The notes: a model not told the origin generated them from the letters alone. DNA of 64,000 nt from a virus (IMGVR_UViG_2608642293_000001:1-64000); one strand, 5' to 3'. Positions 1 through 59,274 are shown, counted from the first letter of the stretch. Numbers and translations: made by a program.

Positions 1-50
1 TCAGCAATTACATCGCCTTTGGCTTGTATATAAGTTGCAGTCCATGGATT
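1..50 (-). pseudogene. cotJC: cotJC 3' fragment (start of it; continues left of window)
   Basis: Minus strand reads NPWTATYIQAKGDVIAD, matching the CotJC segment (B. subtilis-like ...GVPFTASYIQAKGDPIAD...). Confidence 0.9.
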
Positions 51-1671
51 CGCTTGAACTATCTAACTGCATGTTATCCAAGCAAAAAAACTTCACATCA
101 AAAATTTTGTTTGTGAAATCGCATGTTACTTTTTCAATTATATTTCTTAGTAGAGTTCGTTTTATATCTATATCATCAGTAGTATTAAAAGTTTTATTAA
201 AATCTATGAAACTTTGTATTAAATGTTTTATTTCTAAAATAGAATCCTTTAAATGGGCATGAGTTTCTTCGCTACTAGATAAGATTAACTTTAATTTATT
301 AACTTCAGTTGTCATTGCGGCAATTTGGGACCTATATATTTTTTTTACATCTTCCATTTCTGTTTTTGATAATTCATTAACGAGGTTTATAACCTGTTTT
401 TCTTTTTCAATTATTTGTGATTTTAAATTATCAACTATCTGTTTATCAGAATTTTTTAATAAATCATTCAGTTTATCATTATATGTCTTTAATATGATAT
501 TCTTATTATAGGTTTGTATTGTTTCTACTATAATAGGGTCAACAATGTCACATCTCAAGTTAGGAGCTGCACATCTATTAGTTAAATACTGCTTTTCTTT
601 ATTAGAACAAACATAATAAATATAACTCTTACCATCTTTATTTTTAGAATTATATTTTATTACCATATTTGAACCACATTTTCCACACTTTAATAGTCCA
701 GAAAACAAGGCATTATTAGATCCAGTGCCACTTCTATTTGATATTTGTTTTGATTTTTCAGCATTAGAGTCGAGTTTCTTTTGTACTCGAAGCCAATCAA
801 TTGATGGGATAATTCCAGAATGACCTGAGATGGCAACTATTATATTATCTTTATCAGTTTTTTTGTTATAAGTTAAGTATCCATTTCCATTAGCTTTACC
901 GTATACGTTAAAGTTTTTTGATTTTAGGTATTCGTGTGTAGATTCACTCGATTTGACATACAAACTACTTCTTAAAATTCTTTTTACACCAGTCAGTTCA
1001 AAGTTTACTCCAGTTTTGCTTTTATATCCATTATTGTTTAAATCTTTTACAACATTTAGAATTGAGCCTTTAGAAAGATAGTTATTATATATAAACTTTA
1101 TTATTTCTAATTCTTCATCGATAGGAATTAATTTAACAAAAGATTTTTCTTTCATTTCTTCATTCATATAATTAACTTTTTCTGAAGCATATCCAAGAGG
1201 CAGTTGCCCTCCAGACCATTTTCCTAACTTTGCAAGCTGAAGCATGTTATCTTTTACTCGTTCTGCAATTGTTTCACGTTCTAATTGGGCGAATACAGAA
1301 GCTATGTATATCATCGCACGGCCAGTAGGTGTACTGGTATCAAATCTTTCTTTAATGCTTATGAAATCGACACTATATTTTTGCAGTAATTCAAGTATTG
1401 AAGAAAAATCCGCAACATTACGTGAGATTCTATCTAATCTATAACAAATTAATACACTGATTTGATTAGATTTAATATCATTAAGTAATCTTTGGAAATT
1501 AGGTCTATTAACATTTTTACCACTAAAACCTTCATCTTCGTAGATTATGTATTCCAATTCCTCGTTTTTAAAATAAACCTCGCAATGATCTTTACATAAA
1601 TCAATTTGATTCTCAACACTTTCACCTTTGCCAGTAAAGACTGATTTTCTAGAATAGATAGCTATTTTCAT
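1..1671 (-). CDS. Large serine recombinase (integrase 1); last 13 codons are read from host cotJC DNA in another frame
   Basis: IAIYSRKS catalytic Ser motif, YEDEGFSG, YRLDRISR, recombinase domain, Zn ribbon CGKCG...C...C, coiled coil. ATG at 1671 follows a GAAGGTG RBS. Confidence 0.97.
   Translation of the reverse strand: MKIAIYSRKSVFTGKGESVENQIDLCKDHCEVYFKNEELEYIIYEDEGFSGKNVNRPNFQRLLNDIKSNQISVLICYRLDRISRNVADFSSILELLQKYSVDFISIKERFDTSTPTGRAMIYIASVFAQLERETIAERVKDNMLQLAKLGKWSGGQLPLGYASEKVNYMNEEMKEKSFVKLIPIDEELEIIKFIYNNYLSKGSILNVVKDLNNNGYKSKTGVNFELTGVKRILRSSLYVKSSESTHEYLKSKNFNVYGKANGNGYLTYNKKTDKDNIIVAISGHSGIIPSIDWLRVQKKLDSNAEKSKQISNRSGTGSNNALFSGLLKCGKCGSNMVIKYNSKNKDGKSYIYYVCSNKEKQYLTNRCAAPNLRCDIVDPIIVETIQTYNKNIILKTYNDKLNDLLKNSDKQIVDNLKSQIIEKEKQVINLVNELSKTEMEDVKKIYRSQIAAMTTEVNKLKLILSSSEETHAHLKDSILEIKHLIQSFIDFNKTFNTTDDIDIKRTLLRNIIEKVTCDFTNKIFDVKFFCLDNMQLDSSSESMDCNLYTSQRRCNC
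43..72. other. Left att junction of prophage 1 (core CATGGATT, phage arm 55-72)
   Basis: The core is repeated at 59117-59124. Arm 55-72 is a 15/18 inverted match to 59101-59118. Confidence 0.9.
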
Positions 1672-1723
1672 TAACAACACCTTCAATTCTAATTATTATA
1701 GATATGCAATTTAATATGTACTT

Positions 1724-2395
1724 TTAATAAATTTTAATTGCCTGTTTAACCTTACCTACTATTTCAATTTGATCTTTGACTATATCATACATTTGCGGAA
1801 CATATTGAGGGTCAGTGCTCATTGGAATTAGTGTTATCATATTATTATTTTGAATAACTTTTTTTACTGTAGCTTCCATTCCGTCAATCAATACAACTCC
1901 AATTGCTCCGTTTTCAACACATGGGGTTTTCTCAATTAATAATAGTGAACCATCACCGAATTCTTGATTCATACTATCCCCTTGAACACGTAAATAAAAA
2001 TAATCTGTATCTCTATTTAGAAAACTTTTTAATGTAGGCATATAACCATCGATATTATCTACAGCTAAAATAGGTTTTCCAGCTCTTACTGAACCAACTA
2101 TAGGCAAATTAATTATATTTGATTTATCTTCATTAATAGATTCATATACAGCGACTTCCTCTTTTACCCTGTCAGCTATAGTAGCGTCCCACATGTCTAT
2201 ATCATTTTTGAAAAAATCCGAAGTTTCAACGCCTAAAATATCTGCTATTTTATTTAGCTTATCTATAGTAGGGTTTGTAAATTTATTATTTTCAAGATCG
2301 CTTATGTATCCTGCGGAAATGCCACTAACCCTTGCCAAATTATTAAGACTCATTTTCTTATCTTTTCTTATCTTTCTTATATTATCACCTAACAA
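1724..2395 (-). CDS. CI-like repressor (XRE HTH + S24 autopeptidase)
   Basis: N-terminal HTH, VRAG cleavage site, LRVQGDSM catalytic Ser, TVKK Lys. Divergent from a cro-like gene. Confidence 0.95.
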   Translation of the reverse strand: MLGDNIRKIRKDKKMSLNNLARVSGISAGYISDLENNKFTNPTIDKLNKIADILGVETSDFFKNDIDMWDATIADRVKEEVAVYESINEDKSNIINLPIVGSVRAGKPILAVDNIDGYMPTLKSFLNRDTDYFYLRVQGDSMNQEFGDGSLLLIEKTPCVENGAIGVVLIDGMEATVKKVIQNNNMITLIPMSTDPQYVPQMYDIVKDQIEIVGKVKQAIKIY

Positions 2396-2409
2396 TTTAA
2401 ATTCCTCCG

Positions 2410-2580
2410 TTCATTCTGATAGAACAATAATACTACTTTTAACGTTCAATGTCAATGAAAAAAGAAGGAAATAAAAGGAATTCAATGAGATTGAAAGATA
2501 TTTTACAAATTTAGTTCAATATGATAGAATAGAAGAATTGTTCAATAGCATTGAATGTGATATTATTCAATCATACCGAA
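2410..2580. promoter_or_regulatory. Six repressor operator sites TTCAAT-N3-ATTGAA in the cI/cro intergenic region
   Basis: Sites start at 2410, 2445, 2481 (perfect), 2515, 2541 (perfect) and 2566. Confidence 0.85.
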
Positions 2581-2601
2581 CGGTGAAAGGAGGAATCAAA
2601 T

Positions 2602-2793
2602 TTGAACAGGATGAAAATTTTAAGAGAAGAATTAGGCTTGACAGTTAGGGAAGTTGCAGAGAGAGCTAATGTAGCAGTAGGTTATGTGTCAACATTAGAA
2701 AATGATAAAGAGAATAAAACTAATCCATCAAAAGATGTAATGACAAGGATTGCTAAAGCACTTGAAAGTACTGTCACAGAAATATTTTTCTAG
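2602..2793 (+). CDS. Cro-like XRE HTH regulator
   Basis: Single HTH domain, AAAGGAGG RBS, divergent from cI. Confidence 0.9.
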   Translation: MNRMKILREELGLTVREVAERANVAVGYVSTLENDKENKTNPSKDVMTRIAKALESTVTEIFF

Positions 2794-2845
2794 ATTTCAA
2801 TAATTTGTACAAGCATATCAAAGTAATCAAAACTTCAAGGAGGGG

Positions 2846-3055
2846 ATGAATTTGAAAATTAAGCTATTGAGTATTGAAAATATTCCTTACTTAGATGTTA
2901 ATTCTAAAAAAATTAATTTGTCGATTGCAAGCTCAATATATGAAGCACTTGAAGAATTACGTTCATTAAATACTGGACTAGATGTGAAATTTGAAAATTA
3001 CAATCAATTTGCTGGACTTATAAATGAGATTAATAAAATCACACAAAACGATTAA
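2846..3055 (+). CDS. Hypothetical early phage protein
   Basis: ORF with AGGAGG RBS in the early operon. Confidence 0.6.
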   Translation: MNLKIKLLSIENIPYLDVNSKKINLSIASSIYEALEELRSLNTGLDVKFENYNQFAGLINEINKITQND

Positions 3056-3259
3056 ATGCATATTATAGATTATAAAAATTTAAGGAGTAAGATCATGGCA
3101 AAACGAATTAATTACAATGAATTCAAGGTAGTATGCAATGGAGCTCCTTGTGAACAAGCACTAATGAATTATTATAGCACATTAATTGATTTTTTAGTTG
3201 AAAAGTTTGGAAAAGATTCAGTAAGAATTGCATTAGAAGAATTAATCAATGAAGTCTAA
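3056..3259 (+). CDS. Hypothetical early phage protein (start probably at internal MAKRIN)
   Basis: AAGGAG RBS precedes the internal Met. Confidence 0.6.
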   Translation: MHIIDYKNLRSKIMAKRINYNEFKVVCNGAPCEQALMNYYSTLIDFLVEKFGKDSVRIALEELINEV

Positions 3260-3327
3260 AGATGGACAGGCTGAAAAGCCTTACAAAACTGCTTAACATA
3301 ATTTACCAATAGCAAAGGAGGAACTTT

Positions 3328-4062: not shown

Positions 4063-4098
4063 TTAACATAATAAAAATATTGTAGGAGGAACACAAAA

Positions 4099-4768: not shown

Positions 4769-4968
4769 AATTTTACCATATGCTGAAAGAAAAAGTAAAA
4801 GGAGGAATTAAATTTGATTGAATCAGGAACAGTATTCAATCACGAAGGAGAAAATTGGGAAGTTGAAATATACGACCAATATGAGGATAAGTATATTTGC
4901 AAAAATTTAGCTTCACATAATTTTCAAACTGGAAAGTTCAGTGAAGTGGAAATAAGGGAGGATTTAAA

Positions 4969-5175: not shown

Positions 5176-5282
5176 GTGTACATGTGGTCCAATATGGAAT
5201 ATTAGTATATATGCCCAGATTCCTACAGATGGCTATAAATGTCCATGGTGTAGAGAAAAGGAAAGAAAGGAAATGATGCAAA

Positions 5283-45601: not shown

Positions 45602-45742
45602 AATTAAAAATTTTAGAAATCCTAAATAATAACTATAAAAAATTAATACTAGAATCATTTATAATAGTAAGTGAACTAAGGACATCTACCAAGTGTAGGT
45701 GTCTTTTGCTATATGAAAATAACTAGTAGAAAGAGGTGTAAT

Positions 45743-45979
45743 ATGAATGAAGAATTAGTAAAAGACAAAATTGAAACTCACGAAAGAAGGCTTAATAATC
45801 ATGGAGATAGACTAGATAAGCTTGAGCAGGATGGAAGAGAGTTAAAAACAGAACTTAAGAACCTATGTGAAAATCTTAAAAACTTAACAAGTATGATGAA
45901 GTGGTTTATAACTGCAATTGGAGGAGCTTTAATAAGCTTCTTTTTTTATGCAGTTCAGACAGGAATATTTAATAAATAA
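45743..45979 (+). CDS. XhlA-like holin
   Basis: Coiled coil plus C-terminal TM; upstream of the endolysin. Confidence 0.85.
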   Translation: MNEELVKDKIETHERRLNNHGDRLDKLEQDGRELKTELKNLCENLKNLTSMMKWFITAIGGALISFFFYAVQTGIFNK

Positions 45980-45994
45980 TTGGAGGTATGTAAA

Positions 45995-46435
45995 ATGATA
46001 AGAACAGCATTAAAGTTGATAATTAAGGTATTAGAAAGTAAGTTAATTAAAAGTGGACTAGAGGAAACTATACTAAAGAATAAAAATTATATTACTGTAG
46101 GTAAAGCTATTTGGAACATAGTAGACGAGAATTTTAGAATAAGCAAAACTGTAGAGGAAAAGGTATTATCTAAAGCAGATCAGTTTGATAAATTGCTATT
46201 AGCTAAGTTTCCAGAACTAAGCCAAGATGATGTGGCAGAAATAAGGCAAGCAATAGCAGGAGAAATAAATCAAGGGAAAGCAGCAGTAGTAGATAATTCT
46301 ACTTTACTTAAAGAGCTACAAAATGATAATGATAATTTAAAAGCTGAATTGGCAGCATTAACAGAACAATTTAATAAAGTCCAAGCATTAATGGTAAAGC
46401 CCGCTGATGCAAACATACAACAAGTTACAGCATAG
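45995..46435 (+). CDS. Lysis-module protein (holin-associated)
   Basis: Position between holin and endolysin. Confidence 0.65.
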   Translation: MIRTALKLIIKVLESKLIKSGLEETILKNKNYITVGKAIWNIVDENFRISKTVEEKVLSKADQFDKLLLAKFPELSQDDVAEIRQAIAGEINQGKAAVVDNSTLLKELQNDNDNLKAELAALTEQFNKVQALMVKPADANIQQVTA

Positions 46436-46494
46436 TTTTTAGAGTGACCTTTATAGGTTGCTCTTATTTTTTTATTATAGAAAGGATGACATAA

Positions 46495-47280
46495 ATGAAA
46501 GGTATAGATGTAAGTAATCATAATGGGAATATAAATTTTGTACAGGTGAAAGATTCAGGAATAGAAGCTGTTTACATTAAAGCTACAGAAGGGACAACTT
46601 TTAAAGATAGTTATCTAGATACTAATTATTCAAATGCACATTATGTAGGATTGAAGACAGGATTCTATCATTTTCTAGTTGGGACTAGTGCTCCGGAAAC
46701 TCAGGCCAATAGTTTTTATAATGCTATAAAGGATAAAGCAAATGATCTAATTCCAATGTTAGATGTAGAAAGTAATTTTGATGGACTAATGGATTATATT
46801 TTAAGATTCATTGCTAAATTTAAAGAGCTATCTAATATGCAAATTGGTATTTATACTTACACTAGCTTTATGGATAACTTAGATGACAGAATTGCAGATT
46901 ATCCATTATGGGAAGCAAATTATAACAATACTCCATGGAAATTAAATTCTAATTTCTTTACTAATAGAGTGGGGCATCAATATAGTGAAACAGGAACAGT
47001 AAGTGGAATAAATACTGATTGCGATATGAATGAGTTTAATGATGGAATATTAAATAAAACTACTGGATATGTAAGAACTACTTATCTTCCAAACGGGTAT
47101 AGAGGTGATGGTAGTTTTGTAGGAGTGGACATGGAATATGTACAGGAATATTTTAAGGATATTCGTATTTATGCAAATTCAAATGATAAAGGAATTTGGG
47201 TTGAAACTCAGAACTTACCTATGAGCAAATGCTTAGAATTAAAAGATATATTAGGAAGTTGGTTTTATGACATAAAGTAA
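46495..47280 (+). CDS. GH25 muramidase endolysin
   Basis: GIDVSNHNG, IKATEG, GFYHF, LDVE, HQYSETG. Confidence 0.95.
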   Translation: MKGIDVSNHNGNINFVQVKDSGIEAVYIKATEGTTFKDSYLDTNYSNAHYVGLKTGFYHFLVGTSAPETQANSFYNAIKDKANDLIPMLDVESNFDGLMDYILRFIAKFKELSNMQIGIYTYTSFMDNLDDRIADYPLWEANYNNTPWKLNSNFFTNRVGHQYSETGTVSGINTDCDMNEFNDGILNKTTGYVRTTYLPNGYRGDGSFVGVDMEYVQEYFKDIRIYANSNDKGIWVETQNLPMSKCLELKDILGSWFYDIK

Positions 47281-47321
47281 TATGATATAATATCTATTGC
47301 TAAATTGCATATACTCTGTTG

Positions 47322-47511: not shown

Positions 47512-49047
47512 ATGAATAATTATTTTAAGAAGATTATTTTATTTTTCTGTATTTTTTGTGCTTTTGTTATGCCTTTGCGATCTAACATTGCTAAGGCTAA
47601 TCCTATTGCCATAGGAGCTGTGGAGTTTGCGGAGGGGTCTTTAGGTGGTGTCGTTACTGGTGGAGCGGGTTATGCCGGATATGATATTATTGATCGTTAT
47701 AAAAAAGAAGCTTCGGATTTTATTATTAAAAAGTCTCTTTCAACTCTCACTAATACTTTTTTAAAATTTTATTCAGATAGTAGTGGTCAAAAGTATGTAG
47801 GTATTGATGGTACTGGATTAGATGAATTGCAATCTATGTTGAATGATTTTAGGCATTCTAGTATTCCAGTTTCTACTAATTATACTACTTCTAATACGTC
47901 TAGTGGTGCTGTTAATGGTGTTTCTGAGCCTTATATGCTTAATGGTTTTTATATGGTTCCTTTTTATATTCAATCTACTAAAATTGCTTTTCCTTCTTTT
48001 AAAGTTCAAGCATATGATACTGTTAATATTCAAGTTCAGAATTATCAATCTAGTGTTTATACTTGTACTATTACTCCTGCAGTTGATACTTACTATCGTT
48101 TAAATATGTATAATGCTCCTTATGCTAATATTCAATTTAGTAAAGATGATGGATTAACTTGGTCTGATTATTTGTATCATTTTGCCGCTGGTAATGCTGC
48201 TGGTCGATATATTGGTATAGGTTACACTACTACTTCTAATACTGTTTATGTTCCAGCAACTGATGTAATCACTGGTACTGGCATTGACGGAAAGGCTAGT
48301 GATTCAGTTGGTGATGGTGTTGTTGCAGTTCCTATAAGTTGTCAATATCAAGATGATGGTACAGTTGTTTATACTCCAATTGAAGGTGCGAGTGTTGGAG
48401 TTGTTAGCGGATTAACTAAAGATACTAGCAATTCAACGGATATTGATGATAACTATGAAATAAAAATAAATAGAGATAGCATAGATAGAATATTTAATAG
48501 CAAGCAAGGTCATTTAACCAGTAATACAGCAGAAAATAGAAAGATATTAGAGCTTATTGCTAATAACGCACATAACTATATTGGTATGGACGACTATGAG
48601 AATGAGTGGTATACTAGCATTAATTCGGATGGAACACAAACGTGGGTAGAAGTTACTAATAATGAGATAGTAAACGGTGGAATCAACGAAATTCCTATAA
48701 AATTTGAATTAACTAATTCAGCAGATGATGTTACTCAACCAAATACTACTACAGGAGCGGCTATTACAATAAGTGAAAAGAATAAAGACCATATTTTTCG
48801 AGAAGCATCAGGACATCTAACAGAAGATACACCAGAAAATAGAAAAATTTTAGAGGATGTAGCAAATAACGAAGAGAATTATTTAGGAAGCGATAAATAT
48901 GGTAATGAGTGGTATGCCAAAGTTAACGAGGATGGAACTCAAACTTGGGTGCAAGTACGAGGTACTGAAATTAGAAATGGAGGAGTTAATGAATTACCTA
49001 TAGGCTTTGATATTAATACAGGGTTATCTAGTCCTGTAAAGCCGTAA
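47512..49047 (+). CDS. Secreted chimeric protein with a duplicated C-terminal polymorphic-toxin-like domain
   Basis: Signal peptide; two ~72-aa copies of (H/R)IF....GHL..(D/N)T.ENRKILE...NEWY....DGTQTWV.V....I.NGG.N. Confidence 0.75.
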   Translation: MNNYFKKIILFFCIFCAFVMPLRSNIAKANPIAIGAVEFAEGSLGGVVTGGAGYAGYDIIDRYKKEASDFIIKKSLSTLTNTFLKFYSDSSGQKYVGIDGTGLDELQSMLNDFRHSSIPVSTNYTTSNTSSGAVNGVSEPYMLNGFYMVPFYIQSTKIAFPSFKVQAYDTVNIQVQNYQSSVYTCTITPAVDTYYRLNMYNAPYANIQFSKDDGLTWSDYLYHFAAGNAAGRYIGIGYTTTSNTVYVPATDVITGTGIDGKASDSVGDGVVAVPISCQYQDDGTVVYTPIEGASVGVVSGLTKDTSNSTDIDDNYEIKINRDSIDRIFNSKQGHLTSNTAENRKILELIANNAHNYIGMDDYENEWYTSINSDGTQTWVEVTNNEIVNGGINEIPIKFELTNSADDVTQPNTTTGAAITISEKNKDHIFREASGHLTEDTPENRKILEDVANNEENYLGSDKYGNEWYAKVNEDGTQTWVQVRGTEIRNGGVNELPIGFDINTGLSSPVKP

Positions 49048-49071
49048 TAAAACAATAGGAAGGTTGATAAT

Positions 49072-49263
49072 ATGAACTTAACAATTGAAGAATCGTATAA
49101 AGCAATGATACATTTTTTAGAGAAATATTATGAAAGAACAAAGTCTGATGATGTAGGTGGATTGCTAGGTGATATGATACTTTTAGGAAATGGTATGACT
49201 GCAGATCCAGCTTCATGGAATGATTGGTTAGAATCAGTTGAAGAAATAAAGAATGAAAAATAG
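49072..49263 (+). CDS. Candidate immunity protein
   Basis: Small and acidic (AM..FLEKYYERTKSDDVGGLLG...ADPASWNDW); directly follows the toxin-like gene. Confidence 0.7.
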   Translation: MNLTIEESYKAMIHFLEKYYERTKSDDVGGLLGDMILLGNGMTADPASWNDWLESVEEIKNEK

Positions 49264-49841
49264 TTTCAGTAAAAATTTAAACTAATGAAATAACTATAAA
49301 AGAACTTAGTAAAAGTGTACAAGCTTTGCTGGGTTCTTTTTTAATATAACAAATATGATAATTCCTATAAAGCTAACAGCGATAATAGATAGCGTTAGAC
49401 TGCCAAGATACAAGATAATTACAAGATTCTTTTATGCATTAAGTCTTATAGGGTAGTAAAGAGAAATCTTTATTACCCTTATTTTTTTGCATAAAAACAG
49501 AGATAGCGAAAGAATCAGGTGAATGACAGTAAAGCTATCTCTGTTGGATTAATGTAACATTATATTTTAATTATTAATACTATTTGAATAAATTGTACGT
49601 AAGACTATAATAAAAAGGCAGTAGCCTAAGCTACCACCAGTCCATTTTGCATAATTAGTATAACTTAAATTGATTATCCAGGTCAAGAAATATAAGGAAT
49701 AAGTAAATGAGGTATACTATCTTTGTTAACCTTCATAAAATTCCATAATTTATTGGATACTATTAACATGCATTTTAAAGGAATTAAGTAGAAAATGTAG
49801 AAATTAAAGTATGGAAAGATGAAATTTAAGGGGGATAAATA

Positions 49842-50672
49842 ATGACAATTTTACTATTTATGGTCTGCTTAGTTTGTCTTATAGCAGGACTTATTAAGCC
49901 AAGTAAATTAATTTTTTGGAAGGAACAAGAGCAGAGAACTAGAAAAAATGTACTAAAATATTTTGGATTAGCAACAATTATATCATTTGCTTTAGTGGGA
50001 ATATTTAATCCCAGTAACCATAGCAATACTAATGTTGCAAGTGCTAAAAAGGAAACAATAAAAAATACTGAGACACAAGAAAAACAAGAGACTAAAGAAG
50101 TCAAAGAAACGAAAAAGTCTGGATGGATACAGGAAAATGGAAGCTGGTATTTATATGGTGATGATGGAAGTCCAAAGACAGGATGGATTAAAGATAATAA
50201 TAAGTCGTATTATTTTAACTCAGCAGGAGTTTTACAAACTGGTTGGATAAAAGATCATGGTAAGGATTATTATCTAGATAAATCTGGAGTTATGCAGACC
50301 GGATGGAAAGAAAGTGATGGTAAATGGTATTACTTAAATTCTGATGGTTCAATGGCATCAAATGCAACTGTTGATGGATACTATTTATCTTCGAGTGGAG
50401 CAATGGAAGATAAGAGCTCAAGTATTTCAGATGGAAATAGTAGCTCAGTTTCAGCTAATAACTCAAATTCAAATAGTAGTACAGTTAAAAGTAGTAGTTC
50501 AGGTGGAAATCAATATGTAGATGCAAATGGGAATGGACTTATAAAGGGAAGTAAGAATCATATATATCATGTGCCTGGTAGTACATATTATAGCAGGACT
50601 AAGAATGTTGAACAATGGTTTAAGACAGTAGAAGAAGCAGAAGCTGCTGGTTACAGAGCTCCTGAAAAGTAG
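49842..50672 (+). CDS. Membrane-anchored protein with choline-binding-type repeats and C-terminal Ada-metal-binding-like domain
   Basis: Two TMs, TGW...YYL...G.M repeats, IKG...IYHVPG...[12 protein letters not shown]. Confidence 0.85.
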
Positions 50673-50827
50673 AGTAATAATAAGAGAAAATAGCAACCAA
50701 TATAGAGATAGCAGGGAGAATGGGGATGTGCTATCTCTATTTTTGTGCATTAAATATTTTATATTTGACAAAGATACCAAATAATATACAATTATGGTAT
50801 AAAGATGTATGAGAGGGGATTTTAATA

Positions 50828-51481
50828 ATGAAGAAGAGACTTTTAGCTAGTTTACTAACAGGATTATTAATTGTAGGAGTTTTACCAGTAGGTGCAAGTG
50901 CAGAATGGAAACGTGATAATACTGGATGGTGGTATTCTGATTGGGATTCATGGTACATAGGTTGGAAAGAAATAGACGGAAAATGGTATTATTTTGATTA
51001 TAATGGATACATGGCACATGATACAACAATAGACGGATATCAACTAGGATCAGATGGTGCAAGAATAGAAAGGATATATCAAGCAGGAGAGAAATGGATA
51101 GTTGATGGTCAATGGGAATTCACTATTAATTCAGTTGAATCTACAAAATACAGAAATGAATTTTGGGATAAAAACCCTGAACAAGTTGTAATTATTAATT
51201 ACTCTTACAAAAATTTAGGATACTCTAACAGTTATATGGATTTATATTTTAGTAGCTTTACTGTTATGGATGAAAAGGGAGTTGTTGCAGAGCTTTATCC
51301 AGCAAATACTAAATATTCTCCAAAAGAAACTCCTATTGGAGCAACATGTGACAAGGCACAAGCTGGATATGGATTATCTAATAAGAGTTCCTCAATAACA
51401 ATACAAGTGGAAGAATACTCTCATGACTCAAGCGGTAATAGTCAAAAACAAAAGGCAACATTTAAAGTACCAGTAAAATAA
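50828..51481 (+). CDS. Secreted cell-wall-binding repeat protein with DUF4352-like domain
   Basis: Signal peptide (ASA/EWK), GWKEIDGKWYYF repeat, Ig-like C-terminus. Confidence 0.8.
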   Translation: MKKRLLASLLTGLLIVGVLPVGASAEWKRDNTGWWYSDWDSWYIGWKEIDGKWYYFDYNGYMAHDTTIDGYQLGSDGARIERIYQAGEKWIVDGQWEFTINSVESTKYRNEFWDKNPEQVVIINYSYKNLGYSNSYMDLYFSSFTVMDEKGVVAELYPANTKYSPKETPIGATCDKAQAGYGLSNKSSSITIQVEEYSHDSSGNSQKQKATFKVPVK

Positions 51482-51500
51482 ATTATGTAAGGGGGATTTA

Positions 51501-52136
51501 ATGATGAAGAAAAAACTTATAGCTAGTGTATTAGCGTTGTTTACAATAATTAGTTTAGTTGGGTGTGGCAGTACTCAAACGACTGCGAGTGCAGATACAA
51601 AAGAAACTGTTAAGCAAGAAGATACTAACCCAAATGAGAAGACAGTAGATGGCATTAAATTTACATTAGAAGGTGTAACTAGAGAACCTGTAAAAGGGGA
51701 TAGAACAAAAGATGATTTTGCACAAAATAATGGAGAGTATTTTGCTATTGGACCTAAAGTTGTAAAAGCATCAGATTATGAAAATATAGTTATCAACCTA
51801 AAAATTGAAAATACTACAGATAAAGCAATTGAAATTTCAGAATATGGTTGGACCGCAAAGATGAAAGATGGATATAAATTAAATGATAGTTTAAACGATA
51901 AAGATATTGATAAACAAATAGCTTCGCATAATGATATTGAGGGAGCAATTAAAATATTAGTAGAAAAAAAATTAGACGTAAAAGAATTTAACTTAAATTA
52001 TAATTTAATTGACTACACTAATTTTGATAAAATGTTAGGTGAGGCTGTTTCTGGGAAAAGTGAAGCTGAATGTAAAGCTAAATACCCAGAACTTTTCAAA
52101 GAAAATTATGTTACATTTAATATTCAGGTTAACTGA
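51501..52136 (+). CDS. Lipoprotein, DUF4352-like
   Basis: Lipobox LVGC; INLKIENTTDK. Confidence 0.8.
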   Translation: MMKKKLIASVLALFTIISLVGCGSTQTTASADTKETVKQEDTNPNEKTVDGIKFTLEGVTREPVKGDRTKDDFAQNNGEYFAIGPKVVKASDYENIVINLKIENTTDKAIEISEYGWTAKMKDGYKLNDSLNDKDIDKQIASHNDIEGAIKILVEKKLDVKEFNLNYNLIDYTNFDKMLGEAVSGKSEAECKAKYPELFKENYVTFNIQVN

Positions 52137-52152
52137 TAGATTAAAGCTAGAA

Positions 52153-52305
52153 TTAAATTTCTAGCTTTTTTGTTGAGTAAATTATTATTCTATCTATCAA
52201 TATACCATATAAAACCAAAGGATCTACATGTCCAGTAAAAGTTAAAATTGCAACTACAATAATTAGCGTTATATAGAAATGAGATTTGCTTGAAATAAAG
52301 TCCAT
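52153..52305 (-). CDS. 50-aa two-helix membrane peptide (not in ORF track)
   Basis: MDFISSKSHFYITLIIVVAILTFTGHVDPLVLYGILIDRIIIYSTKKLEI; GAGGTG RBS. Confidence 0.55.
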   Translation of the reverse strand: MDFISSKSHFYITLIIVVAILTFTGHVDPLVLYGILIDRIIIYSTKKLEI

Positions 52306-52375
52306 AATACACCTCACAATATAATAATATTTTAATTATTTCCAATACATGGTAAAATATACGTGAGGTGATTTT

Positions 52376-52549
52376 GTGACTAAAAAAGTAGGCAAGTATG
52401 AGTATGAAAAAGCAGAAACAACATTTAACATTAACGATGAACTTGATATGGAAATATATAAATTTTTGCTAGAGAATAGTAAAGTTATAGGTAAAAGCAA
52501 TTATATAAAACAACTTTTGTATGAAAAAATGCTTAAGAGTAAGGAATAA
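52376..52549 (+). CDS. 57-aa ribbon-helix-helix-like protein (not in ORF track)
   Basis: GTG start after GAGGTG; ...TTFNINDELDMEIYKFL...GKSNYIKQLLYEKM; hairpin terminator 52535-52570. Confidence 0.6.
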   Translation: MTKKVGKYEYEKAETTFNINDELDMEIYKFLLENSKVIGKSNYIKQLLYEKMLKSKE

Positions 52550-52664
52550 ACCTTACTCTTATTTTTTTTTATAATTTTTTAATAAATTTCAGAAACTTTA
52601 GGAAACTTTATTAAATTTATTGCATAGAATAAACCATAAGATAAATGAAAAGGAGCTAGAATTT

Positions 52665-53555
52665 ATGAAAGATTATGAAATTTTAGGTATAGACATAGGA
52701 AATTGCACAACTAAGACTAGCACTGGAATAATATTCGATTCTAAAATTACAGATATTGAACCACTCGGAAAATCAGACATGCTATTCATGGATAAAAAAA
52801 CTTACTGGTTAGGAGAGGGCAATTATGATACCACCTATAAGAAAGTGGATAAACAGAGTTATTTAAAATTACTTTATGGAGCAATAGGGTTGAGCGAACA
52901 ATCTAGTAATAAAATCATCAACAATTGTATAGTTTTGGGACTGCCTTTAAGCCAGTTTAAGGAAGATAAAATGTCTTTAGTTAATATGGTTTTAGCTAAT
53001 AGAGAAAAAATTATAAGAATTAACAATACAGAAAAACAAATCATTATACAGGATGTTGAAGTGTTTCCAGAAGGCGTTGTAACGCTGCCAGATGATTATG
53101 AGGGAATAGTAATAGATATAGGCGGTAGGACAACAGATTGTGCTTTAGTGGTTAACGAGAGAGGTAGAAGAAGGGTTTTAAATCCTATAAGTCTGCCTAC
53201 CGGAACTATAAACTTATACAAAGATTTCATTAATAAGGTCAACAATAAATTTAGTTTAGATTTAGGGATGAATGATGCTGAACGGTTAATGTTGAATGGT
53301 TTATATTTGGATGGAAAGAGGACAAATATTAATTTTGCGGTTGAAGTTTATAAACAGTTTGTAGATAGTCTAATAAGCCGCTTACAGGTTGAGTATTCTT
53401 TGAGAACTAATCGCATTAGTCTTACAGGTGGGGGAGCATTATTGGTTTACGAGCAAATTAGAGATAGATTGGGTGATGGAGTAACCCTTCAGGATAGACC
53501 TACACTAGCAAATGCGAGGGCATATTATGAATTGGGGTGCAGCATATGGCAATAG
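52665..53555 (+). CDS. parM: ParM/StbA-family actin-like ATPase
   Basis: GIDIGNCTTK (phosphate 1), VFPEG, VIDIGGRTTD (phosphate 2), LTGGGA, ANARAY. Confidence 0.9.
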   Translation: MKDYEILGIDIGNCTTKTSTGIIFDSKITDIEPLGKSDMLFMDKKTYWLGEGNYDTTYKKVDKQSYLKLLYGAIGLSEQSSNKIINNCIVLGLPLSQFKEDKMSLVNMVLANREKIIRINNTEKQIIIQDVEVFPEGVVTLPDDYEGIVIDIGGRTTDCALVVNERGRRRVLNPISLPTGTINLYKDFINKVNNKFSLDLGMNDAERLMLNGLYLDGKRTNINFAVEVYKQFVDSLISRLQVEYSLRTNRISLTGGGALLVYEQIRDRLGDGVTLQDRPTLANARAYYELGCSIWQ

Positions 53556-53737
53556 TAAAAGCAGTCAGCTTTAAGAATAAAGAGCAGGATTTATTGGATC
53601 ATGTAGGAAAAAGAGATTTCAGTTACTATGTTAAAGATCTTATAAGAAAAGATATGAACGAAAAACTATCAAGCAAGGTACCTGGCAGAAACGAAAATAT
53701 TACAATTAAAAAAAGAAATATTAATTTTGAATTTTAG
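53546..53737 (+). CDS. ParR-like ribbon-helix-helix adaptor
   Basis: Overlaps the parM stop; VKAVSFK...FSYYVKDLIRKDM. Confidence 0.7.
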   Translation: MAIVKAVSFKNKEQDLLDHVGKRDFSYYVKDLIRKDMNEKLSSKVPGRNENITIKKRNINFEF

Positions 53738-53918
53738 GAGGTTTATTATGAAAAAATCAAATAAAAAAGAATCAAGTGAAAAGCCTGAAGTAAATATAAC
53801 TGATATTATAAAAGATTGGACTCAGAACTCTGAAATATTTAAGACTATGGTACCTAATATGAGTTTTAATGATTTGTTATTGTACTGCATAGAAAAGTTC
53901 ACCATTTTACCTAAATAA
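53727..53918 (+). CDS. Hypothetical protein (likely start MKKSNK)
   Basis: AGGAGG RBS; terminator 53930-53959. Confidence 0.6.
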   Translation: MNFRRFIMKKSNKKESSEKPEVNITDIIKDWTQNSEIFKTMVPNMSFNDLLLYCIEKFTILPK

Positions 53919-54085
53919 GCCACTTAAAAAGCCTAAATCTAAAATGATAGACTTAGGCTAAGGAGCTATCAGCTCTGCTTGCTGCGCTTCGCTTACGCTA
54001 ATAGCATATGCTACAAGTTTAAAAAAGTTTCCTGTTTATATATATCGGAGATCAATTTTAAGAATAAATTAAGATTTAGTTTAGT

Positions 54086-54154
54086 TTACAGAAAAGTTAT
54101 AACACCTACTGCAACAGTGTAAAATGCAATTGCTCCTAAAGTAAATGTGAACAT
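54086..54154 (-). CDS. 22-aa hydrophobic peptide (not in ORF track)
   Basis: MFTFTLGAIAFYTVAVGVITFL; GAGGTGAG RBS. Confidence 0.45.
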   Translation of the reverse strand: MFTFTLGAIAFYTVAVGVITFL

Positions 54155-54213
54155 TTTCTCACCTCACTTTTTATTAATATCTTTATTATTTACAATACTC
54201 AAATAATTATTCA

Positions 54214-54651
54214 ATGGAGGTTTATGAAATGAAAGAAATTACTATGAGTATTCATGATTTCATGGAAATTCAGAGAGGAAACCTTACATTAGAGGAATTA
54301 GAATTAGATTTAGATACTTTAGACAAAATAGCAGGAGAAATTCTCCAGAATCCTGAACTAAAAACGGCAGTTATTACATCAATAGCCTATATGAATATGC
54401 ATATGCGTGTTTATGCTGATGAAATGGACCAATTAAGAAGTGCTAAAGGTGAAATTGTAATAGTATTGCAAGTATGCATTGTTATTATATGTATTGTCAT
54501 GTGCTTGTTAGAAATCGCAAAATCCTTGATTGGAAATAGAAGTTCAGATGTAGGAAGTATTGTGATGAAATATCTTGCTGCTACAGTTGGAACTTGTTTA
54601 GTACCGAGAGTATTTACATGGATAGCACATTTATGCGGAATTAATGTATAA
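54214..54651 (+). CDS. Membrane protein with VirB2/TrbC pilin-like C-terminal half
   Basis: Internal VYA/D processing-like motif followed by two hydrophobic helices joined by a short loop. Confidence 0.6.
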   Translation: MEVYEMKEITMSIHDFMEIQRGNLTLEELELDLDTLDKIAGEILQNPELKTAVITSIAYMNMHMRVYADEMDQLRSAKGEIVIVLQVCIVIICIVMCLLEIAKSLIGNRSSDVGSIVMKYLAATVGTCLVPRVFTWIAHLCGINV

Positions 54652-54662
54652 GGAGTTTAATT

Positions 54663-54929
54663 ATGAATGAAAGTATATCTAATGCAATTCAAAACGGATT
54701 TGATAAAGTTTCTGATAGTATAAAGGATAAAATTTCTGGCTTTATGATCTATATTTTAAAATCTATAGGAAATTTTGCTTTAGAGAGTTCGGATATAGTT
54801 TGTCCGATAATTTGTTTAATAGCATTAGCTTTTTATATAGGCGGTAATAGAAAGGCTGGTAAATATGTTTCAGGATCATTTGTATTATATTTTATACTTC
54901 AAGCACTTAGAGGTTTTATAAAAGCATGA
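54663..54929 (+). CDS. Small two-TM membrane protein
   Basis: Hydrophobic hairpin; stop overlaps the ATPase start (ATGA). Confidence 0.7.
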   Translation: MNESISNAIQNGFDKVSDSIKDKISGFMIYILKSIGNFALESSDIVCPIICLIALAFYIGGNRKAGKYVSGSFVLYFILQALRGFIKA

Positions 54930-57271
54930 AAAGCCTAAAATTATCTAACTATTTTGAATTAGTGAAACCAACCTACCGTTATATTAAAATTACAAGCCAT
55001 AAATCGATTCGCAATTACAATTCTGATAACTTAAGCAAATTTATTGCCCTTACCTACAAAAGCCTTGACAGAAGAATAAGAAAAGAACAAAAGAAGATAT
55101 TCTTCGAAACAACCTTTAAAATTTCCTACATTATAGATATTCAAAATAATGATTGTAGTTTTTATTTCTTGGTTCCTGAAGTGTATTTAAATATGTTATT
55201 TGAGAAAATAACAGAGATATGGAATAAAGCTACTGTTGAAGTTCTAGAGGATCCAATTAAACCTATCTCGGACAATGCTGAAATGTACCAATTATCATAC
55301 AAAAAAGAAGACGCTCTAAGTTTAAAGGTAGATAAAAAATCAAACGAACCTTTAAATTCTATTTTATCAGTTATGGATATTTTAAAGGATGATGATAGAG
55401 TAACAATAATTTATAATTTCTTACCTATAAGCCAGTTTTCATGGTTAGAAAGATATTTAGGGACTATAGAAAAATTAAAAGAAAATAAAATGGTTGATAA
55501 AAAGCAGACATCAATAGAATATTTGATTAAAACTACTGTACTATTTGTTTCAAAAATGATAACAGATTTTCTAAATGTTGTTGATGATTTCACAGGAGGA
55601 AACCCAGAACAGGAGAAAAAAAGCCTTTATGATGTTGTTATAGGGTATATGCAGAACAGAAAAGAATTGTCTCCAGCTACTAAGAAAAAGAAGGAAAGTA
55701 CTGTCCTAGATACTCAAATTGTTGTATTTTCAGAAAGCAAAGATAATATACGAAAAACTAATAATGCTTTGAGTACATGCCAAGCCTATAGGGTTTTGGA
55801 TGAAGACAACGAACTTATGTATAAAAAAGTAAAAAAGAAGATAAGAAAAAAATTCAAGGATATAGAACAAACAGATTATAGAGTAGATTACAATACTATG
55901 AGTGTAGAAGAAGTAGGGAGCACTTGTTTACAAATTCCAGCAAGAAGCCTTTTATATCAATTTAAATTGAAATTTGTTAATGTAGAAGAAGTTCAAATAC
56001 CCGAGAAACTAAGGCAAGGTTACATTACATTAGGAACCAATAAATTCAAAGGGAAAACCTACGAAACTTACTTTGAAGATCATAAAGATATAGGTTCATT
56101 AGGTTTAGTGTTGTTGGCAAGGCAAGGCGGCGGGAAAACAACTTACTTATGCCATTATTCTAAAGATTGCTTATCTAGAAAAGAAAGTATAGTACACATA
56201 GATTTTATTAGAAACAACGAAGCTAGTAAAACAATTGAAAAAGTAGTGCCTAAAGAAGATCTAATAATATTAGATTTAAGCACAGAGGAAGGATTACAAG
56301 CTCTAGCATATAATGAGATTGAATTTACAGAAAATATATCTTTATTTGAAAGGCAGGCTCTAGCTAATAAAAAGGCTGAAATGACAATACAATTAGTAGA
56401 TAGCATAAATGATAATGGAGAACCTTTAAGCCCTAAAATGAGTCGTTATTTAAGTGCTGCAGCTAATGTTATATATATTAAGGAAAATACTACCTTGAAA
56501 GATGTTATAAGATGCCTACAGGATTATAAGTTTAGAGAAGAATCAATTAATACTTGTATTCCAGATGTATTAAAAGAGGAATTTGAAGAAGAAATACAAG
56601 CTTTAGAGGAATTAGATGAATACACAAAAGCTACAAAAGATAACCCAAGCCAAAAATGTGGAACTAAGGATAGTAAAATAGAAGGGATTTTGGACCGTAT
56701 AAGTTTACTAATGAGAGATTTTTATTTAAAGAAGATGTTTAAGAAGAATCCGAAGAATAATATAAATTTCGCTAAAGCCACAGAAGAAGGGAAAGTTATA
56801 TTAATTCGTATGCAACAAAGTAAGTTTAAGGACTATGCAAAGAATGTTATTACTACTTTCTTCATTACTAAAACATGGCTGGCATGTGAGCTTAGAGGGG
56901 ACTTATCCGAGACACAACGAAGAACTCATATAATTATAGATGAAATAAGTCAAACTAAAACAGCGGAAAGATTTTTAGAAAGTAAATTAACTCAAGGTAG
57001 AAAGTTTGGATTTAAACCAGTTCTAGCGCTCCAATATTTAGATCAGCTAGATAAGAAGACAATATATTCACTTAAAGGTGCTGGATGCAGTTTTATGCTG
57101 CTTAAAGGTGCTATAAAAGAAGACTTTGAGTATTTTAAAGATGAAATAGATAACTTTGAATATGAAGATTTAAAGGAAATGAGCAAGACATATAAATATC
57201 CATCGTTTAATATTATCCAGTATTCAGATGGAGTTACAAGTTTTATAACAGAATTGCCTAAACCAGTTTAA
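54926..57271 (+). CDS. VirB4/HerA-FtsK superfamily P-loop ATPase
   Basis: Walker A ARQGGGKT, Walker B HIIIDE, QGRKFG arginine finger, ALQYLDQL. Confidence 0.85.
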   Translation: MKSLKLSNYFELVKPTYRYIKITSHKSIRNYNSDNLSKFIALTYKSLDRRIRKEQKKIFFETTFKISYIIDIQNNDCSFYFLVPEVYLNMLFEKITEIWNKATVEVLEDPIKPISDNAEMYQLSYKKEDALSLKVDKKSNEPLNSILSVMDILKDDDRVTIIYNFLPISQFSWLERYLGTIEKLKENKMVDKKQTSIEYLIKTTVLFVSKMITDFLNVVDDFTGGNPEQEKKSLYDVVIGYMQNRKELSPATKKKKESTVLDTQIVVFSESKDNIRKTNNALSTCQAYRVLDEDNELMYKKVKKKIRKKFKDIEQTDYRVDYNTMSVEEVGSTCLQIPARSLLYQFKLKFVNVEEVQIPEKLRQGYITLGTNKFKGKTYETYFEDHKDIGSLGLVLLARQGGGKTTYLCHYSKDCLSRKESIVHIDFIRNNEASKTIEKVVPKEDLIILDLSTEEGLQALAYNEIEFTENISLFERQALANKKAEMTIQLVDSINDNGEPLSPKMSRYLSAAANVIYIKENTTLKDVIRCLQDYKFREESINTCIPDVLKEEFEEEIQALEELDEYTKATKDNPSQKCGTKDSKIEGILDRISLLMRDFYLKKMFKKNPKNNINFAKATEEGKVILIRMQQSKFKDYAKNVITTFFITKTWLACELRGDLSETQRRTHIIIDEISQTKTAERFLESKLTQGRKFGFKPVLALQYLDQLDKKTIYSLKGAGCSFMLLKGAIKEDFEYFKDEIDNFEYEDLKEMSKTYKYPSFNIIQYSDGVTSFITELPKPV

Positions 57272-57283
57272 AGACCAAGATAT

Positions 57284-57523
57284 TTAATTATCCTGGTCTT
57301 CCTCATTATCGAAATTATAATGTTGTTTGAAGTAGTGTAGGATTCTGTAAGAGCTTATTCCAAGTTCTTTAGATAACCTGAAAATCACGTTTACAGTTGG
57401 GTTACAAGCGCTAGGGTGCTTTTCCATTTTAGATAGATAAGATTTACTAACCCCAATTTTAAGAGCCAATTCAGTTAAAGAAAGTTCTTTTTCAGTTCGC
57501 TTTTCCTCGAGCAGGCAAACCAC
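57284..57523 (-). CDS. XRE HTH regulator
   Basis: LSLTELALKIGVSKSYLSKMEK. Confidence 0.85.
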   Translation of the reverse strand: MVCLLEEKRTEKELSLTELALKIGVSKSYLSKMEKHPSACNPTVNVIFRLSKELGISSYRILHYFKQHYNFDNEEDQDN

Positions 57524-57565
57524 CTCGGCTAAACAGATTTTTCATTTGTAATTGTAGTATATTTA

Positions 57566-57594
57566 TTATTCTACAATTATTATAATATTCCTCT
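57566..57594 (-). promoter_or_regulatory. Sigma-H-type promoter AGAGGAATA-N11-GTAGAATAA
   Basis: Matches RNAGGAWWW-N11/12-RNNGAATWW; upstream of the 57523 HTH gene. Confidence 0.65.
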
Positions 57595-58018
57595 ATTTTC
57601 TACAAAATTTTCAATAATTATTTTAAATATATTAGTTAGGTTTAAAATTATTGTAAATTTAAGACAAAAATAATCAATTATAATTATTGCTTTAAATACA
57701 TTTAAATTCGGACTATGTATTTTAAATGTATATCACAATAAAATGTAAAATATTTACATATTAGACCTAATATTCCATAAAAAATCAAGAAAATGCAATA
57801 TTGAAAGAAGGGACAAAACTCGAATTGAGTCTAACGGTTACTGTCAGTGAACGATTTTAGTTGTATAATTAGATTATAGGAATTGATCAATGTCTTATAG
57901 AAAAAAAGAGAGGGGTTATGAGAAAAAGTTAAAAAATTAACGAATAAAATTAATTGGATAGAAAAGCTTTGAATTGTAATTTTGGAAAACACTTAATATA
58001 TATGTATATCAGAAAAGC

Positions 58019-58246
58019 TTATTTAGGGTAAGGTTTTCTGATGCTAGTCCTACCAAGCAGAAAATCTGTACTAACTTCATAAAAATCAGCAAATAATTCA
58101 ATCATTTGAATAGATGGCTCATATGTACCATTTTCATAATGAGCGTATGCTGATCTAGATATATTAAGTTTTTTAGAGAGCTCGACCTGAGTGAGTTCGG
58201 CTTCGTTTCTAAGATATGTTAATCTTTTAGATAGCAATTTTATCAC
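58019..58246 (-). CDS. XRE HTH regulator
   Basis: LTQVELSKKLNISRSAYAHYENG...VSTDFLLG. Confidence 0.9.
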   Translation of the reverse strand: MIKLLSKRLTYLRNEAELTQVELSKKLNISRSAYAHYENGTYEPSIQMIELFADFYEVSTDFLLGRTSIRKPYPK

Positions 58247-58332
58247 CTCAACATAATTTTAGCAACAGGACTAGTAAATTGTGCCAAAATGTTAGCAAAA
58301 CGAACAAAATTACAGAAAAAGTAAAGAAGCAA

Positions 58333-58372
58333 GCAAACGTGTGTTTGCATATATCGGTATTTATGATATAAT
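58333..58372 (+). promoter_or_regulatory. Sigma-A promoter (TTGCAT-N16-TATAAT, extended TG) overlapped by SOS-box-like palindrome GCAAACGTGTGTTTGC
   Basis: Read directly from the sequence. Confidence 0.6.
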
Positions 58373-58428
58373 AAATTTAATGATTGAAATACAAAAAGCT
58401 ATAATATTAGAGACAGGAGTGTTATGTT

Positions 58429-58635
58429 ATGGAAAGAAAAACTTATGAAAATGATGAAGATTATATTTTGGAAGTTCTAGAAGAAGAGGAAGACAACTTA
58501 ACAGAGTTTATGAGGAATAATCTTCCGGATAATTTGAAATTTCAGTTTTCTAAATTTATAGCAGTACGTAATGCGATAGAAAAAATTAAAGAAAAAAACA
58601 TATTTAATAAAGAACTGTACAATAAAACTGTTTGA
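58429..58635 (+). CDS. Small hypothetical protein near the right att
   Basis: AGGAG RBS, own promoter, bidirectional terminator 58658-58694. Confidence 0.7.
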   Translation: MERKTYENDEDYILEVLEEEEDNLTEFMRNNLPDNLKFQFSKFIAVRNAIEKIKEKNIFNKELYNKTV

Positions 58636-58693
58636 TTTTTGCTAGTATAGTGATAATAAATAAAGGGCCAACTTGAGTAGTTGACCCTTTATT

Positions 58694-59119
58694 TCATAGA
58701 ATATTATATTCTTTTAATAACTTATATTTATCTCTGCTTACATTATTAGAACCATTTTCCCAACTGCACCAAGCTGTAATGCTTATATTAGTGAGATTAC
58801 ATACTTCCTTTATAGATAAGTTATTTTGTTTTCGATAGTTTAATAACTTTTCACTAGAGTTATTTGTTTCCTCCAAATATGTATCGTAAAAATATTTCGT
58901 ATCAAGATTGAAGTGAAGAGCTAATTTTTGTGAGATTTCTCGTCCAGGTAATTTTCTACCTAATTCAATATCTTTTATACATGATCCTTTACTAAAACCA
59001 ACTATTTCAGCCAATTTATCTTGAGTTAGGTCATTTTTTAATCGATGAAATTTTAACTTATCACCTATAGTTTTGCCAAAATCAAACATATTAATTTTAT
59101 ATGTAGTTAGAATGTTCAT
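58694..59119 (-). CDS. Twin XRE-HTH protein whose ATG lies in the att core; in frame with integrase 1 after excision
   Basis: Two HTHs (LTQDKLAEIVG...IELG; LSIKEVCNLTNIS...WENG); ATG is the CAT at 59117-59119. Confidence 0.88.
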   Translation of the reverse strand: MNILTTYKINMFDFGKTIGDKLKFHRLKNDLTQDKLAEIVGFSKGSCIKDIELGRKLPGREISQKLALHFNLDTKYFYDTYLEETNNSSEKLLNYRKQNNLSIKEVCNLTNISITAWCSWENGSNNVSRDKYKLLKEYNIL

Positions 59120-59124
59120 GGATT
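59101..59124. other. Right att junction of prophage 1
   Basis: Core CATGGATT at 59117-59124 and phage arm 59101-59118. Confidence 0.9.
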
Positions 59125-59274
59125 TCCTGTTGCATCTGTATAAAATACTGCTTTTCTATGATCAGCATAATGCCCAGCAAGTCCTGCTTTTTTTATCTCT
59201 TCTATAGTTGCATTTTCCATAAGTTGATATACCATTGTAGCAATTATTTCTACATGGGCCATTTCTTCTGTTCC
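59119..59274 (-). pseudogene. cotJC: cotJC internal fragment (52 codons) between the two prophages
   Basis: GTEEMAHVEIIATMVYQLMENATIEEIKKAGLAGHYADHRKAVFYTDATGNP, containing the EExxH Mn-catalase motif; joins in frame to WTATYIQAKGD at the left edge. Confidence 0.95.

Follow-up and report, generated by a model that had tools for sequence, protein, structure and literature searches.

When two phages come to lie inside one sporulation gene, is the outcome an ordinary double lysogen, a developmental switch by which the gene is rebuilt, or a wreck? The question is raised by a clostridial copy of cotJC, a spore-coat gene of the manganese-catalase family, on a single IMG/VR 'provirus' record of 108,873 nt, of which bases 1-64000 (IMGVR_UViG_2608642293_000001:1-64000) are the stretch analysed here and called the window. 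Two prophages, each with a large serine integrase of its own, sit at separate sites of this gene, and as sequenced in the chromosome cotJC is not translatable as one protein. The original prediction, made from the window alone, had cotJC in three pieces: the middle and the 3' pieces are both present as described, whereas the 5' piece is absent from the record, was not found elsewhere and is inferred. We number the pieces as exons 1 to 3 from the 5' end, the words exon and intron being used for them by analogy only.

Exon 2 is a 156-bp stretch between the two elements (59119-59274, minus strand) that covers CotJC residues 62-113, numbered against the protein of C. cibarium. Translation of 59110-59280 on the minus strand gives VNGTEEMAHVEIIATMVYQLMENATIEEIKKAGLAGHYADHRKAVFYTDATGNP and then a stop (VNGTEEMAH...TGNP), and the 52 residues of the piece are CotJC, as had been claimed: they match Pfam Mn_catalase (PF05067, E 1e-8, profile positions 63-97) and carry the E-x-x-H metal motif of that fold as EEMAH. 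The first 50 bases of the window (1-50, minus) continue the same protein, translating to NPWTATYIQAKGDVIA, the start of exon 3 (residues ~112-128, the record being cut at base 1). The core CATGGATT stands on either side of the first element, with its integrase-side copy at 43-50 and its second copy at 59117-59124, and when the two pieces are joined through it in silico they give 209 nt, 206 of which are identical to the cotJC of L074, an IMG/VR locus from a near-identical host in which this site is empty. All three mismatches lie away from the joint and leave the translation unchanged, so that an empty-site strain confirms the proposal that removing 51-59124 through the shared core restores the frame; counted separately, exon 3 agrees with L074 at 50 of 50 nt, and exon 2 plus 10 nt at 163 of 166.

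The similarity to CotJC ends at 59274, also where it had been placed, and the open reading frame (ORF) of integrase 2 (59250-60929, minus) spans that junction, its last five codons and stop being host cotJC DNA. The two integrases, Int1 of element 1 (between exons 2 and 3, at site 1) and Int2 of element 2 (upstream of exon 2, at site 2), each carry the Pfam domains Resolvase, Recombinase and Zn_ribbon_recom and match the phrog_95 integrase, and they are 38% identical to one another; elements 1 and 2 are two different, unrelated and apparently complete phages. In L074, site 2 is occupied by a prophage with a relative of Int2 (77% identity) and site 1 is empty, so the two insertions were separate events. 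The description of two different serine-integrase prophages at separate sites of one cotJC is therefore upheld.

We place the host in Clostridium, near the genomes G013 and G029. Scanned against species genomes, the 52 amino acids (aa) of exon 2 gave 72 loci, the best of them in Clostridium (C. cibarium, 90%). In C. cibarium, cotJC is an ORF of 192 aa preceded by cotJA- and cotJB-like ORFs. The order cotJA-cotJB-cotJC is found in the relatives G013, C. cibarium and G052, and the three ORFs of G013 match Pfam CotJA, CotJB (PF11007, PF12652) and Mn_catalase.

Both insertion sites recur. Seven of the 33 IMG/VR loci with Int2 relatives have an integrase of at least 60% identity, and all seven abut cotJC from residue ~61-64; the other 26 (at most 53% identity) do not, some of them having less than 100 nt of flank. 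Both loci with Int1 relatives (68% and 62%) abut cotJC from residue 111, and among the 72 genome loci two are interrupted at the same positions: L003 (site 1) and L057 (site 2). We took a census of 130 species genomes from the genus of C. cibarium, in which a break was judged by the end of the match and the end of the open frame; 117 genomes matched the intact CotJC query and 113 matched the 52-aa piece, with 132 matches, all listed. Ten genomes are broken at site 1 (G056, G061, G022, G007, G075, G015, G116, G111, G017 and G070) and eleven at site 2 (G029, G084, G052, G045, G057, G043, G055, G066, G039, G026 and G080). None of the 130 is broken at both, where independence would lead one to expect about one double. 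No census match had an open frame shorter than 90 aa, and three irregular genomes (G046, G051 and G117) were excluded from the counts of breaks.

A related integrase was confirmed beside site 2 in five of the 11 genomes broken there (G052, G045, G029, G084 and G057) and beside site 1 in three of the 10 broken there (G111, G070 and G015); G026 has a distant serine recombinase at site 2, and in G061 an integrase lies away from the site-1 junction. Because other genomes thus link each site to a separate integrase family, a rebuild would need two independent excisions, as had been proposed. The inserted DNA ranges in size from 7 kb (G052) to 107 kb (G015), and the site codons are near-invariant in 29 intact Clostridium loci (D-I-G-T-E-E-M-A-H and D-A-T-G-N-P-W-T-A-T-Y-I-Q), so that many phages of the genus can use them. 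The double insertion in cotJC is real, and both attachment (att) sites are genuine hot spots. As separate observations, L003 (5880-6169) and L057 (7184-10025), both outside the census, have an element end beside cotJC without an integrase, and the 107 kb between the cotJC pieces of G015 (G015:C1:3223490-3330993, site 1) have at the 3' junction a 48%-identical integrase whose match contains three stop codons.

Site 1 lies at codons G-N-P (about residue 112) and site 2 at T-E-E (about residue 63). At site 1 the probable crossover is the AA just before TCC on the sense strand of the gene (TT at 49-50 and 59123-59124 of the window): the attP rebuilt from the window is symmetrical about this AA at 16 of 24 positions, and the same centre and the same score recur in a natural attP, that of L172 (both symmetry scores are raw, with no shuffled control). 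L172 is a viral contig of 54,415 nt from a metagenome; both ends of the G111 prophage are present in it at 99.5-99.9% identity, joined through a 10-nt core in the attP form. A crossover at CC was considered and dropped, as the symmetry of both the rebuilt and the natural attP centres on AA.

The intact sequence of site 2 in G013 reads ..ACAGATATAGGAACAGAAGAAATGG..; identity with it begins at GGAACAGAAG in the window and at GAACAGAAG in G029, and the two site-2 junctions of G052 have CAGAAG in common. The attP sites rebuilt from G052 and G045 have their symmetry centre at the GA of CAGAAG (between CAG and AAG), with 14-15 of 22 arm positions and no shuffled control. Since the G045 junctions vary on both sides of this GA and the symmetry centres on it, we infer a crossover at 59267-59268, the GA of the first GAA codon of ..GTEEMAH, on which the junctions of G052, G045 and G029 bear. 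The host DNA between the two probable crossovers (~59123-59268) would then measure about 146 bp, and the CotJC reading of exon 2 extends to 156 bp because the phage arms resemble host sequence next to the crossovers.

The original prediction had expected the 5' part of cotJC and the far att of element 2 beyond the right end of the window, and neither was found in the record, in related records, in contig scans or in the sequencing run X1. The record extends from the stop codon of integrase 1 to that of the final ORF, which we read as trimming to gene edges, so that host flanks are absent from it; CotJC residues 1-61 (...GLLTDI) are missing, and a search of the whole record with Pfam Mn_catalase returned one match only and no 5' piece. 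No cotJC 5' piece was present at the far ends of five related provirus records; a metagenome scan with the last ORF of the record found no close relative (the best matches being 36% identical or short), and viral contigs, scanned with an alignment of exon 1, yielded nothing. When the record was searched for a far-arm motif patterned on G029, the only match had five mismatches, lay in element 1 and was attributable to chance. The G001 record ends earlier than that of the window, since its far end matches the tail-fibre region of element 2.

Four runs (X1, X3, X4 and X22) were aligned, with a likeness limit of 80%, to the cotJABC locus of G013, which is intact. X1, the likely source run (X1 and X2 were both flagged as a possible source), was aligned as contigs with a depth of ~9. 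One X1 contig (record 4, 43,789 nt) covers exon 2 only, and its loose ends match the window's flanks on both sides, namely the right end of element 1 and the end of integrase 2; another contains exon 3 and the downstream genes. Exon 1, cotJB, cotJA and the upstream gene were left uncovered by all six aligned X1 contigs, holes that in themselves prove nothing. Four loose-end strings matched none of the loci compared, and the matches of X1 records 5 and 6 (21-56 nt, ~80% identity) appear fortuitous; nothing in the raw reads of X22, and almost nothing in X4, aligned to the cotJABC locus. The X1 contig that consists mostly of element 2 (record 4) averaged 12.7 in word depth, compared with ~9 in the host flanks; spontaneous replication is a possible source of this difference, which is too weak to interpret.

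Could the two prophages and the 156-bp piece have been wrongly joined in assembly? The record is one contig from one assembly, but we found no point in favour of a misjoin and regard it as hardly credible, as the independently built 43,789-nt contig matches both flanks of the window, though it derives from the same reads as the source, and both junctions share the anatomy of relatives with a single insertion. The gap in 5' coverage in X1 bears on another possibility, namely that the 5' part of cotJC has been lost or rearranged together with cotJA and cotJB, leaving pieces that are relics from which the gene cannot be rebuilt. The record lacks the 5' piece, the six X1 contigs miss exon 1, cotJB, cotJA and the upstream gene while covering exons 2 and 3, and a lysis cassette common to both prophages could drive deletions: 1.55 kb in direct orientation at 87% identity (45735-47281 and, in the record, 101618-103164), through which homologous recombination would delete ~56 kb including the middle piece of cotJC. 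However, a hole in coverage proves nothing, the depth of the X1 contigs is only ~9, and the 5' region is 73-75% identical among relatives, versus 83-85% for the 3' part, so that exon 1 may fall below the 80% likeness limit through faster divergence. Exon 2, moreover, is open and has 98% identity to intact genes, and in the two relatives in which both ends could be read, G052 and G045, the far end of the element abuts exon 1; run X3, a dairy metagenome, likewise holds both junctions of a G052-like element, together with an intact site 1. The X1 gap thus weighs only weakly against a gene in three pieces, and we consider a dead remnant improbable. A 5' piece would be expected to comprise cotJA and cotJB followed by cotJC codons 1-62 (...LLTDIGT), joined at the GA crossover to a phage arm mirroring ..GCATTTAAGTCAAC.

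What, then, would become of the interrupted gene? Two temperate phages would each have been integrated by their own large serine integrase at two short att sites in cotJC of a cotJABC operon; each integrase, together with a directionality factor, would cut its element out precisely, and only the loss of both elements would restore cotJC. Precise excision would restore the frame at site 1 in silico and at site 2 in the relatives G052, G045 and G029 only. Evidence bearing on such excision comes from relatives. L172 represents the free form of a site-1 element, and in G029 one contig (C79) runs from exon 1 directly into exon 2 and stops 77 nt later, while another (C37, 60,304 nt) has the core at both ends and, at its end, an integrase of 77% identity; the final 77 nt of C37 overlap the start of a third contig (C47), which runs from the integrase end through exon 2 into exon 3. 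Overlaps of 77 nt fit an assembly graph with k=77 in which rejoined and integrated forms are both among the reads, and the G029 loci (L147, L153, L170 and L148) suggest a mixed population of excised and integrated copies; a contig leading from exon 1 into the phage was not found in this assembly, which leaves the picture incomplete. This evidence is silent on timing, the runs being DNA-library contigs of unknown growth state.

We lean towards ordinary double lysogeny at a hot spot in a dispensable gene. Both integrases appear to lie behind repressor genes on the same strand, and ordinary prophage induction would be the usual trigger of excision; the lysogen would simply lack this CotJC, and no two-step sporulation programme would be needed. 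Several observations weigh against this preference. The site-2 element of G052 (L138, G052:C1:3519500-3530000) is only 7 kb long and has an intact integrase of 554 aa; no phage structural genes were recognised in it when its ORF list was read, without a family scan, and one of its ORFs is, by eye, a transporter-like membrane protein. As cotJA, cotJB and both cotJC pieces are open in this genome, the element resembles a skin-like element that has been domesticated and retained for excision. Split copies of the gene are also as well conserved as intact ones: exon 2 is 86-98% identical to that of the window in seven split genomes of ~6 Mb (G029, G084, G052, G045, G057, G043 and G055), and 85-98% identical in six intact genomes (G126, G013, G014, G094, G077 and G028). 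The serine-recombinase elements of sporulation genes that have been tested in the literature accessible to us (skin, SPbeta and gin) all excise during sporulation, and the prior for a developmental trigger is thus not low. A trigger linked to sporulation is possible, if doubtful.

The original prediction had gone further and suggested an AND gate on gene function. On such a reading both prophages would be excised in the mother cell during sporulation by their two orthogonal integrases, as skin and SPbeta are, and cotJC would be rebuilt only after both events, a natural gate with two inputs. The interrupted gene probably belongs to a cotJABC operon, as the CotJA, CotJB and Mn_catalase matches of G013 indicate, and the cotJ operon is expressed in the mother cell of B. 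subtilis. The precise join at site 1, the intact integrase of the 7-kb skin-like remnant in G052 and the undecayed split copies in the seven related ~6-Mb genomes all fit such a programme, and the regulated excision of comparable elements has precedent in the reports available. However, the 5' piece was not found, and no directionality factor was identified, although no search was aimed at such factors or at sporulation promoters, for which motif matches at 30% G+C would be mostly chance. Recombination directionality factors share no common family, according to the accessible text of PMC11795197. With none of 130 genomes carrying both insertions, the double state is no conserved design, and in the double lysogen element 2 lies between the cotJ promoter and exon 2. 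Many genomes of the genus contain two to five cotJC-like matches, and several (for example G056 and G061) have a second intact cotJC-like gene besides the split copy; because paralogues are this frequent, an AND gate on gene function stays a reading and not a result. On balance we find a double developmental rearrangement rather unlikely.

Integration of element 1 alters the integrase as well as the host gene. Int1, as found in the window (1-1686, minus; Pfam, PHROGs), is a truncated prophage form of 561 aa whose last ~13-16 codons are host cotJC DNA in another frame, and at the opposite end of the element lies P0003, a 141-aa ORF with a tandem helix-turn-helix (HTH) domain (58694-59119, minus) whose ATG is inside the core. 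The two ORFs share one frame through the core, so that the attP form would be a single ORF of 688 aa, and the same continuity is seen in G111, where the HTH ORF has no start codon and no Met anywhere, and in G070. The free form is found in L172, whose positions 869-2923 hold an uncut ORF of 684 aa with Resolvase, Recombinase, Zn_ribbon_recom and HTH_3 domains. The same architecture, with the same domains aligned end to end over 668-718 aa, occurs in six of the best 150 matches from 1.84 billion representative proteins, one of which has a C-terminus 49% identical to P0003. A search for longer proteins with P0003 and a single-protein scan of viral contigs had returned no fused form, and the alignment-based scan later superseded both; phage HM T was rejected as further support, since the HTH-like stretch behind its integrase is broken and in another frame. 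The integrase ORF of the element-1 family thus contains attP, and integration severs its last 141 aa, a C-terminal tandem XRE HTH domain, replacing it by ~13-16 host-coded residues. Members of the Int2 family also have attP in the end of the ORF, but only ~5-11 codons are altered.

The severed domain suggests a more elaborate programme for cotJC. The ATG of the orphan HTH ORF overlaps, within the core, the TGA that ends the truncated cotJC (ATGA, 59117-59120), so that transcription from the cotJ promoter could continue into this ORF, a point that also speaks for a developmental rearrangement. In a mother-cell rebuild of fixed order, element 2 would leave first, the cotJ promoter would then read the orphan HTH ORF, and its product would trigger or license the excision of element 1, making a sequential AND gate out of a split integrase; we think this very unlikely. 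Integration-dependent immunity in mycobacteriophages offers a parallel, in that attP lies inside the repressor gene and integration cuts that gene and alters its C-terminus. The likeness is that a phage gene is cut at attP; here it is the serine integrase gene that is cut, with the loss of an entire tandem-HTH domain of 141 aa. Searches of the open-access literature returned nothing relevant on an attP inside a serine integrase gene.

The remaining genes are those of two temperate phages. Element 1 (51-59116, plus) is a complete siphovirus-type prophage of ~59 kb, in which 80 ORFs were scanned against PHROGs. A LexA/CI-like repressor (1727-2395, minus) follows the integrase, and the early genes include a Cro-like protein, an anti-repressor, Erf, a DnaD-like loader and a methyltransferase. 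Terminase (21159-23328), portal (23336-24721), major head protein (28156-29070) and tape measure (32108-36598) are accompanied by scaffold, adaptors and major tail protein; lysis genes (45713-47277) are followed by ~12 kb of cargo and regulators (47512-58632). Among the cargo, a gene of 781 aa (54926-57268; phrog_5156, function unknown) has a relative, found by tblastx, at the far end of the site-2 phage of G029. Element 2, of myovirus type, begins at about 59269 (plus), runs through position 64000 and on to at least 108,873 of the record, and is thus at least 49.6 kb long. Within the window its integrase is followed by an ImmA-like protease (60958-61434, minus), an XRE repressor (61449-62006, minus), a Cro-like protein (62111-62467) and an anti-repressor (63000-63800); the 52 ORFs past the window include exonuclease, DNA polymerase, primase-helicase, terminase, portal, head, tail sheath, baseplate, lysis and cargo genes.

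The interruption of cotJC is itself already in print: a preprint (bioRxiv 10.1101/2021.11.22.469490) attributes cotJC as a target of phages or transposons to Abe et al. 2013, and in Laceyella sacchari the gene contains a skin-like element, according to the preprint of Galperin et al. 2022. These reports concern the same target gene, and their accessible text mentions no two-site map, no Clostridium census and no double occupancy. Papers on C. difficile and C. perfringens, as far as their text is available, place cotJC-like genes beside prophages and not inside them. The closest models are skin in sigK (SpoIVCA; B. subtilis and C. difficile) and SPbeta in spsM (SprA/SprB), in which, according to the sources at hand, a serine-recombinase prophage or remnant likewise sits inside a mother-cell sporulation gene and precise excision restores the frame. 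Unlike these, the present case has cotJC as its target and two elements with two orthogonal integrases in one gene, and is known from sequence alone. The elements gin in gerE (B. cereus) and yin in yabG (C. botulinum) also lie in sporulation genes (PMC5595907, PMC10747680), but in the accessible accounts each gene has one element, and gin is not a prophage. Several excisable elements within one developmental gene, all of them removed in a terminally differentiated cell, are described in the accessible text on the nif and hup genes of heterocyst-forming cyanobacteria (PMC4874684, PMC11249958); unlike cotJC, those genes belong to another phylum and cell type, their elements are mostly not complete phages, and their excision has been shown experimentally. 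Our searches of the open-access literature found no report of two elements in one sporulation gene of a spore former.

Cumulatively, these results chart a prophage hot spot with two sites in cotJC, a gene found broken in 21 of 130 species genomes from one Clostridium genus, and provide two natural, orthogonal integrase/att pairs with attB sites that lie 146 bp apart. The integration-dependent loss of a DNA-binding domain could make the integrase of the element-1 family differ between its free and integrated states. Were both elements to excise on cue, a developmental gene would be under the control of a natural logic gate built from two recombinases, and cotJC would be, in the literature we found, the first multiply interrupted sporulation gene to be described.

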